UHGV virus genome: UHGV-1461890
Direction: 5' to 3' (one strand)
DNA length: 41,432 nucleotides
Source of the DNA: a virus
This document shows, one piece after another, positions 31,928 to 32,110 of the stretch. The notes under the pieces are model-generated. The model had not been told where the DNA came from. It saw only the letters and a list, made by a program, of their open reading frames with translations, and made no database searches. The number at the start of each line of letters is the position of its first letter. The stretch's first letter is position 1. A program made the position numbers and the translations under genes.

Positions 31928-31945
31928 ACTTATGTATTGATATAG

Positions 31946-31974
31946 TTGACAAATAAAGGAAAATGTGTTAAACT
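31946..31974 (+). promoter_or_regulatory. candidate sigma70-type promoter (TTGACA - 17 nt - TAAACT) in int-proximal intergenic region
   Basis: Exact -35 hexamer TTGACA at 31946-31951, 17-nt spacer, TAAACT at 31969-31974; no annotated ORF downstream before the 32018 hairpin. Confidence 0.35.
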
Positions 31975-32017
31975 AACTACACAACAAATGAGATGTTTTA
32001 ACACATCTTCCAAGAAA

Positions 32018-32059
32018 AATCTTATGATTTACGGCAATAAATCATAAGATTTTTTATTT
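32018..32059. terminator. bidirectional rho-independent terminator (perfect 14-bp stem) at 3' end of integrase gene
   Basis: AATCTTATGATTTA-CGGCAA-TAAATCATAAGATT followed by TTTTTATTT on + and TTTT on -. Confidence 0.6.
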
Positions 32060-32110
32060 AATTATTATCATAAAAAACAATTAGGTGGACCTTATTGAAT
32101 TTTATGATAA

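Follow-up and report, generated by a model that had tools for sequence, protein, structure and literature searches.

A putative attachment site and a cassette without an open reading frame between the lysin and serine integrase genes of a temperate phage of gut Clostridia

Overview

The window analysed in this work is the whole 41,432-nucleotide stretch of the virus genome UHGV-1461890, a 41.4-kb genome with 38.5% G+C and of the temperate phage type. In it, the endolysin gene (+ strand) and the gene of a large serine recombinase (int, − strand) are convergent and are separated by a non-coding gap of 217 bp (31894-32110). This gap probably holds two independent things, that is, a phage attachment site (attP, 32062-32113) and a moron-like cassette (31942-32061) devoid of any open reading frame (ORF). 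The palindrome that forms the attachment site, the positions of the phage/host junctions in relatives, the target gene, and the presence or absence of the cassette together with its conservation were all obtained by comparison with related loci.

The attP palindrome

The attachment site is a 52-bp imperfect palindrome, whose two arms of 22 nt each, the P arm being TTATCATAAAAAACAATTAGGT, are complementary at 19 of their 22 positions and leave a gap of 2 nt. Its weakly symmetric outer bases reach 32062 and 32113; thus, the site overlaps the int stop codon (32111-32113), extending 3 bp into int. Scanning the whole 41-kb window for palindromes with 22-nt arms, at least 17 matches, and a 2-nt gap retrieved only two of them, attP (19/22) and the terminator hairpin T2 (18/22), while 40 dinucleotide shuffles gave none.

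The alignment of 30 half-sites from 15 phage-form relatives returned the half-site consensus TTATCATAAAAAACAATTAGGT. Positions −20 to −13 (ATCATAAA), −9, −8, −3, and −2 are those of high information, which fades past about −23 and thereby defines the extent of the site. A layout in two blocks would be expected of the half-site of a large serine integrase. Moreover, the att sites of serine integrases measure about 40-50 bp (PMC12286644), and the site in the window agrees with this size, being an imperfect inverted repeat with a 2-bp centre close to int.

As for the enzyme, the int product carries a resolvase domain with the nucleophilic serine (motif YVRVSDERQ), a recombinase domain, and a zinc beta-ribbon, that is, the domains of a large serine recombinase, and it matches the PHROG 95 integrase family at 5e-99. 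Its best protein match among the deposited phages of INPHARED has an identity of 38%, and the 3-kb region did not retrieve any DNA match from the same database. According to these data, the pair formed by the palindrome and the integrase appears to have, at the level of sequence, every feature of a large-serine-integrase attachment site. The identification of 32062-32113 as the attachment site of the adjacent enzyme is supported on this basis, and from the same comparisons we infer its recombination activity and the exact position of the cut.

Junctions in integrated relatives and the cotJC target

One hundred and fifty loci encoding relatives of the integrase were fetched from species-representative genomes and from IMG/VR, and further loci were reached via near-identical proteins in a large protein collection; the counts of phage-form and integrated loci refer to int sequences at least 55% identical to that of the window. 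A similar palindrome, centred about 22 nt past the int stop and having CC or GG as its centre, is found in 19 phage-form loci, and in about 28 integrated loci the phage homology ends at the palindrome centre. The integrated loci fall into two classes. In the 5' class (at least 12 recognised by motif and about six more by eye), the int-proximal arm is kept and is followed by the reverse complement of the start of cotJC, the host protein reading MxYEKKLQYPVxIKxxNP...IISQYGG, with cotJB and cotJA coming next. In the 3' class (10 loci), the rest of cotJC follows past the centre in the sense direction and begins with GGPDGELGASLRY (listed also as GGPDGELGASLRYLSQRY...). The Pfam analysis of the host gene fragments identified Mn_catalase (1e-43), CotJB, and CotJA, and the junction falls at the cotJC codons for Y-G-G-P. 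This behaviour persists down to an integrase identity of about 37%, and it is shared by a large group of viral contigs from the human gut, whose palindromes match at 20-22/22.

The point of exchange is pinned down by two comparisons. The phage-form locus L154, which harbors attP, and the integrated loci L152 and L153 have nearly identical int genes, the int proteins (P0002 and P0003) being each about 84% identical to that of the window. Their sequences are the same through ...caatccgctCCgcc, after which L154 reads taattg (P arm) and the integrated loci read gtactg (cotJC), with the divergence placed 3 nt past the centre. The NCBI contig JAZLTO010000023.1 (86.5 kb) embeds a prophage with both ends present, whose int and lysin are 72% and 80% identical, respectively, to those of the window. 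Its attL is organized as cotJA-cotJB-cotJC5'...CAGTATGGC-GG-AGCAGAATGTATTTTATGATGATTAA-int and its attR as lysin-terminator-ATAATTATCATAAAAAGCAGTATGGC-GG-TCCCGACGGCGAACTGG...; the two junctions share the core CAGTATGGCGG, and the distance between their centres is 39.3 kb. An intact Mn catalase of 201 residues is rebuilt when the host flanks are joined, and joining the phage flanks yields a palindromic attP resembling that of the window. In the relatives, the position homologous to the palindrome centre is the phage/host junction, and the attL and attR of the JAZLTO prophage rebuild both attB and attP. The central dinucleotide is GG in the attP of the window, and attB in cotJC reads GGY-GG-NCC; the junctions map the crossover to GGYGG, within which the centre of symmetry selects the GG at 32087-32088.

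The original prediction had expected attP beside int and had proposed the mapping of prophage junctions as a check. The mapping, run on the relatives, placed the junctions at the position homologous to the palindrome centre. An attP does occur next to int; it corresponds to a palindrome that the prediction had not listed, rather than to the small repeat, the promoter, or the terminator that it had described.

It is very improbable that the site lies elsewhere, namely at the GATGT/ACATC repeat, at the T2 palindrome (18/22, with its centre GC at 32034-32035), or at a position upstream of int. T2 does represent the sole other long palindrome of the window; however, relatives lacking the entire cassette, T2 and the GATGT repeat included, retain the conserved palindrome and integrate there, and every junction of the integrated relatives is located at the position homologous to 32087-32088. 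T2 was ruled out as attP because relatives without it still integrate.

Some of the data weigh against a full assignment to the phage under study. The junctions resolve the crossover only to a 5-bp window (GGYGG). Furthermore, neither the fetched sources nor the exact-pattern scans of viral and metagenome contigs yielded this exact phage in integrated form, the sole 100% int match (L151, ENA ERZ27229672) being the same phage in its phage form; for this reason, attB and the crossover were deduced from relatives whose int identity is 37-84%. Exact-pattern scans of IMG/VR with the P' arm/int 3' end and with the P arm gave zero matches, and a metagenome scan for the att arm retrieved only phage-form attPs and chance matches.

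In spore formers, cotJC has been named among the targets that are often used for integration (bioRxiv 10.1101/2021.11.22.469490, which cites Abe et al. 2013), and a CotJC-like catalase gene adjoins the phi027 prophage of C. difficile (PMC11222575). Since cotJC has already been named as a target, the one found here is not new in kind.

Three further observations concern the same locus. Clade-wide (L001-L150), a CC at the attP centre, read in the int orientation, is joined to the 5' part of cotJC and a GG to its 3' part; therefore, insertion takes place in either orientation, in step with the central dinucleotide. A mimicry of the host codons CAG/GAG TAT GG is also seen in the phage arms. Lastly, in several integrated relatives a further serine recombinase, only distantly related (about 30% identity), is encoded on the other strand about 0.6-4 kb past the cotJC junction (Table 1), and L066 possesses two identical integrase copies 4.2 kb apart (7562-8986 and 11795-13219), which suggests nested or tandem elements at the cotJC locus.

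Proposed integration and its consequence for the host gene

In the proposed mechanism, attP would consist of two half-sites of about 22-25 bp, in inverted orientation about the GG crossover dinucleotide. Integrase dimers would bind attP and an attB located inside the gene of a cotJC-like manganese catalase (spore coat) in a clostridial host, in the context ...CAG TAY GGN GG|N CCN GAY GG... (Q-Y-G-G-P-D-G); the cut at the central GG would be followed by strand exchange. The GG being on the + strand, integration would follow the pattern of the JAZLTO prophage, the lysin end of the window being joined to the 3' part of cotJC and its int end to the 5' part, with a modelled attL reading ...QYGGPY-stop. 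In the modelled attR, no in-frame start for the 3' part of cotJC was found between the stop at 32045-32047 and the junction, and a restart of cotJC from the P arm was ruled out for lack of such a codon. The host gene would thus be split at about codon 30 until excision of the prophage. In the relatives, the coding sequence of a sporulation gene is interrupted in this way, the Mn_catalase gene being located downstream of those for CotJA and CotJB; the same would be expected for the phage of the window.

Transcription signals in the gap

The gap is non-coding and located at the 3' end of int, as the original prediction stated, its length being 217 bp instead of the 180 bp indicated there. The predicted promoter (TTGACA-17-TAAACT) was retrieved on the + strand, accompanied by a TG of the extended −10 type, with an inferred transcription start near 31981. 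The absence of an ORF behind it was also borne out, in that the only candidates are an ORF with a TTG start in the −35 hexamer and a 19-residue ATG ORF without a Shine-Dalgarno sequence, neither of them plausible. The GATGT...ACATC inverted repeat exists in the form of a 7-bp hairpin, and the terminator hairpin (T2) has indeed a perfect stem with A/T runs on both sides; this stem of 17 nt is longer than the 14 bp previously attributed to it. Two features of the gap are missing from the original prediction, the lysin's own terminator (T1, 31895-31927) and the attP palindrome.

Promoter-like sites with at least 10/12 matches plus TG are four in the window, on both strands, versus 0.9 ± 1.0 in 100 dinucleotide shuffles; only two of them are non-coding, namely the one described here and another one in the immunity region. 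The predicted energy of T2 is −17.7 kcal/mol on the + strand and −17.3 on the − strand, and according to this model it would end both the cassette transcript (+) and the int transcript (−). On the − strand, the hairpins of attP, T2, and the inverted repeat are predicted to fold one after another. The 83-nt stretch 31980-32062 has a predicted fold of −23.6 kcal/mol, versus −6.3 ± 2.2 for its shuffles (z = −8.0). At the DNA level, a 15-nt inverted repeat (GGAAAATGTGTTAAA/TTTAACACATCTTCC, at 31958-31972 and 31997-32011), with a complementarity of 93%, spans the −10 and the early transcribed region; the small hairpin represents half of this repeat, the other arm being that at 31958-31972. Taken together, the features of the gap are beyond chance.

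The immunity region deserves a separate mention. The best promoter match of the window (TTGACA-18-TAAAAT, 11/12 with TG, + strand) is located in the 337-bp gap (34867-35203) between two helix-turn-helix (HTH) repressor-like genes. It is directed antisense into the gene at 35204-35626, in which a terminator-like hairpin occurs at 35355-35382; the sites listed for this region are 34920-34948, 34978-35007, and 35355-35382. An antisense RNA in the immunity region is possible on these grounds.

Distribution of the cassette among phages

The presence of the cassette was checked in the related loci. It is absent from L154, L085/86, L002, L190/191/195/200, L197, L198, and L188 and present in L196 (121/127 identical) and L201 (about 78%). 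In most relatives, the lysin gene and attP are spaced by a terminator alone; T1, whose sequence is identical in L154, L196, L197, and L198, is often the sole element that separates them (Table 1).

In L196 (Logan ERR9539573), the cassette occupies the same place and is 100% identical to that of the window from the −35 up to the point where T2 begins, versus 83% for the lysin genes and 66% for the 500 nt upstream; the P' arms also differ. The lysin gene of L197 (JGI 3300041712) is identical to that of L196 at 710 of 711 positions and is followed by the same attP, with the cassette cleanly missing. L201 (IMG/VR 3300045988_112466, 44 kb) is an unrelated viral contig, whose cassette has as neighbours a terminase-small-subunit-like ORF and a non-coding stretch rich in iterons. 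The TTGACA, the 17-nt spacing, the TG, and the TAAACT are identical in L201 and in the window, with a changed spacer sequence. The early transcribed region has diverged, and a hairpin with a similar loop and a partly different stem is found at the same place. The T2 stem is 100% identical (32014-32062 in the window vs 1499-1544 in L201), and its 6-nt loop has the opposite orientation with respect to the promoter (CGGCAA vs TTGCCG), as would result from a flip of the palindrome or from its use as a recombination point.

Exact-pattern scans of IMG/VR with two segments of the cassette gave zero matches, while the terminator pattern alone did match, leading to L201. Probing the 2.5 Mb of fetched loci by nhmmer with a profile of the three copies did not reveal any further copy, and the search against INPHARED retrieved only AT-rich matches (E = 0.3) in Listeria phages.

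Like a moron, the cassette has its own promoter and terminator, is variable among close phages, and has spread horizontally; unlike a moron, which codes for a protein, it does not contain any conserved ORF. These comparisons support a real and mobile transcription unit, for which the role of a small RNA gene can be hypothesised from the sequence.

Possible roles of the cassette

The cassette is most likely an independent transcription unit that would give an RNA of about 78 nt, with a single-stranded 5' end, the 7-bp hairpin, and the terminator hairpin; it is from the signals described above that we infer its transcription and any function that such an RNA may have. In a lysogen, it would be located at the lysin end of the prophage, pointing toward the 3' fragment of cotJC and halted by its own terminator, and T2 would also stop the transcription of int arriving from the opposite strand. 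Three pairs of the T2 stem have changed on one side only in L196, and all of them are maintained on the + strand. The central part of the stem carries two A-to-G substitutions (+); in the + RNA they give G-U pairs and a more stable hairpin (−20.6 vs −17.7 kcal/mol), whereas in the − RNA they result in A-C mismatches (−14.2 vs −17.3 kcal/mol). Maintenance of the + strand transcript is weakly suggested by these changes.

One possible and tentative scenario is that of a horizontally mobile, ORF-less moron, i.e., a small-RNA gene moving between unrelated phages of gut Clostridia, which would be expressed from the prophage end and would act on transcripts of the host or of competing phages, with the terminator palindrome serving as a recombination handle. 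The use of this palindrome as a handle would explain the inversion of the loop between copies. Several data count against the RNA. Only three independent copies of the cassette are known, too few for covariation statistics, and no fully compensatory in-register double change was observed among them. Rfam 15, searched with 31500-32600, gave a best E of 0.8 or worse, far below the gathering threshold, and the scan of the whole window at that threshold was empty. No complementarity of at least 13 nt was found elsewhere in the phage, and, out of 43 start regions, the most stable predicted duplex, that with gene 12413-13129, is not convincing; its −22 kcal/mol is about 2.3 standard deviations better than the −16.8 ± 2.2 of shuffled seeds, the lowest of which was −25.4. 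In addition, the terminator stem is more conserved than the body of the RNA, and this conservation could derive from recombination at the palindrome rather than from an RNA function.

These negative results on targets and Rfam matches are in line with the idea that the cassette is functionless debris, either a promoter and a terminator left behind after the deletion of a moron ORF or a recombination scar, in which only the hairpin works, terminating int and late transcription. In most relatives, one terminator suffices in the lysin-attP space, and the transcribed 5' region, of only about 35 nt, is strongly diverged in L201, where the terminator stem is identical. An intact promoter would not be expected of debris, though; the −35, the 17-nt spacing, the TG, and the −10 are identical in three phage backgrounds in spite of the change of the spacer in L201, where the genomic context is different, and the conservation of the cassette exceeds that of the neighbouring genes. 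We regard this explanation as rather unlikely. More doubtful still is that the cassette acts as DNA, the 15-nt inverted repeat or the T2 palindrome being the binding site of a protein (an operator, the site of a directionality factor, or that of another regulator near attP). The 93% complementarity of the repeat, its position astride the −10 and the early transcribed region, and its vicinity to attP are compatible with such a role; nevertheless, no other occurrence of the motif exists in the window, immunity region included, L201 does not conserve the left arm of the repeat, and the cassette of that contig is not beside an att site. As is established for the family, large serine integrases do not require accessory DNA sites. 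The operator idea was discarded on finding that AATGTGTTAAA occurs in the window only at its two positions in the cassette, no more than by chance. The same very low credit given to an attP elsewhere in the region is due to a micro-protein encoded by the 19-residue ORF at 31989-32048 (MRCFNTSSKKNLMIYGNKS). This ORF is kept in L196 with one amino acid change, yet it has no Shine-Dalgarno sequence, its predicted 5' untranslated region is only about 8 nt long, and it terminates inside the terminator stem. It was rejected for the missing Shine-Dalgarno sequence and the loss of its ATG in L201; owing to that loss, the cassette is consistently ORF-less.

Genomic setting

The lysin, an Amidase_3/SPOR protein, is encoded by the final late gene, which forms the left border of the gap. 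Since this gene and int are adjacent, the window represents the excised (phage) form. Small ORFs and the two HTH repressor-like genes are found 5' of int. The coordinates of the features are reported in Table 1.

Table 1. Features of the gap and its flanks in the window, and corresponding features of related loci.
Feature	Position	Strand	Details
Endolysin, N-acetylmuramoyl-L-alanine amidase with SPOR	31183-31893	+	Pfam Amidase_3 2.6e-26, SPOR 3.5e-5
T1, bidirectional intrinsic terminator downstream of the lysin gene	31895-31927	both	14-pair stem followed by a T run
ORF-less cassette, ~120 nt	31942-32061	+	promoter, short 5' region with hairpin, terminator; boundaries good to a few bases
Sigma-70-type promoter-like site	31946-31974	+	−35 TTGACA 31946-31951, 17-nt spacer, TG 31966-31967 (extended −10), −10 TAAACT 31969-31974
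Small hairpin (GATGT...ACATC)	31990-32009	+	7-bp stem 31990-31996/32003-32009, 6-nt loop
T2, terminator hairpin	32014-32062	both	perfect 17-18-bp stem (32015-32031/32038-32054), A/T tracts on each side
attP (putative)	32062-32113	both	P arm 32065-32086 (TTATCATAAAAAACAATTAGGT), central GG 32087-32088, P' arm 32089-32110; 52-bp imperfect palindrome
Large serine recombinase (integrase), 498 residues	32111-33607	−	Pfam PF00239 Resolvase 5.5e-26, PF07508 Recombinase 5.2e-17, PF13408 Zn_ribbon_recom 9.2e-8
attB example, 50-60 bp, cotJC			TGCTCAGATCATTATTTCACAGTATGGTGGACCCGACGGCGAACTGGCAGCAAGCC
Lysin-attP space in L154			13 nt plus T1 sequence as in the window
Lysin-attP space in L198			T run of T1 abuts the attP arm
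Lysin-attP space in L188			44 nt
Lysin-attP space in L190, L195, L200			AT-rich palindrome plus a different terminator
Second serine recombinase gene, L025	12229-13149		
Second serine recombinase gene, L027	12032-12646		
Second serine recombinase gene, L055	12295-13287		
Second serine recombinase gene, L115	6008-7027		
Second serine recombinase gene, L074	12125-13132		
Second serine recombinase gene, L050	5934-6845		

Directly upstream of int and overlapping it, an 80-residue ORF (33597-33839, − strand) gave at most a sub-threshold match with a Zn-ribbon. Its position is conserved, an 81-residue ORF occurring in L152-L154 and L198; it could be a candidate recombination directionality factor or a partner linked to int. 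In L192-L194, whose lysins are 89-90% identical to that of the window, three ORFs without any Pfam match (186, about 560, and more than 449 residues) come next instead of attP-int; therefore, the lysin gene is common to different downstream modules. The lysin relatives P0123 and P0126 were uninformative for att, in that the lysin gene is followed by other genes and not by an int/att module.

Elsewhere in the window, the late region contains a single ORF of 3782 residues at 15917-27265, whose counterpart in the JAZLTO prophage is a gene of 3453 residues with MuF_C and weak LPD3 matches. Both ends of the window (1-50 and 41375-41432) lie inside a hexamer repeat (GGCTCT/GGCGAT/GGCTAT, coding for Gly-Ser/Asp/Tyr repeats), and no exact terminal overlap was found between them. 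The genome is probably circular or permuted, the contig having broken in a repetitive gene.

Comparison with known systems

The putative attP resembles those of the large serine integrases (phiC31, Bxb1, A118/LI, TP901-1, SPbeta SprA) in being located beside a gene with Resolvase, Recombinase, and Zn-ribbon domains. As in the phiC31/Bxb1-type systems, it consists of an inverted repeat, imperfect and about 50 bp long, with a non-palindromic 2-bp centre shared with attB, its half-sites have two conserved blocks (outer ATCATAAA and inner CA..GG), and accessory sites are not apparent. Unlike those systems, it overlaps the int stop and would be served by an integrase no more than 38% identical to those of deposited phages; moreover, its clade has either CC or GG as the centre, with both orientations in the same host site.

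A serine-integrase element that interrupts a sporulation gene, here cotJC of the cotJA-cotJB-cotJC operon, is reminiscent of the intervening elements, i.e., skin in sigK, SPbeta in spsM, and those in spoVFB, spoVR, and gerE. As in the case of skin and SPbeta, a precise excision would restore the gene; in contrast to them, the window is an apparently complete 41-kb phage of uncultured gut and rumen Clostridia.

Several small RNAs are encoded by prophages of E. coli and Salmonella, such as DicF, IsrK, and AgvB/AsxR. The predicted product of the cassette is, like these, short, non-coding, provided with a Rho-independent terminator, and located at a prophage end, and it could be expressed in the lysogen; it differs from them in the host phylum and does not share any sequence or Rfam relationship with them. 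Regarding morons, each of these is transcribed independently, from its own promoter to its own terminator, and they are spread horizontally among phage genomes (PMC3594210). The cassette is likewise self-contained from promoter to terminator, present or absent between near-identical phages, found at varied genome positions, more conserved than its flanks, and placed at the prophage end beside att. It departs from morons in lacking an ORF, in being much shorter (about 120 nt), and in having a base composition like that of the surrounding intergenic DNA.

Significance

In its type, the attP described here is an ordinary case of a known kind, and the cassette is a modest lead toward a possible small RNA. 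For uncultured phages of gut and rumen Clostridia that form one clade, the attP/attB pair is located with a precision of a few bases. The integrase clade, down to about 37% identity, aims at one motif (YGGPDGE) of the spore-coat catalase gene cotJC, in both orientations. This can be used for the annotation of prophages and provides a natural set of orthogonal large-serine-integrase/att pairs. The phages that split cotJC are added to the possible sporulation-linked gene switches. The cassette, if transcribed, would be a compact phage-borne small-RNA gene spreading as a module, which would make it of modest but real interest.

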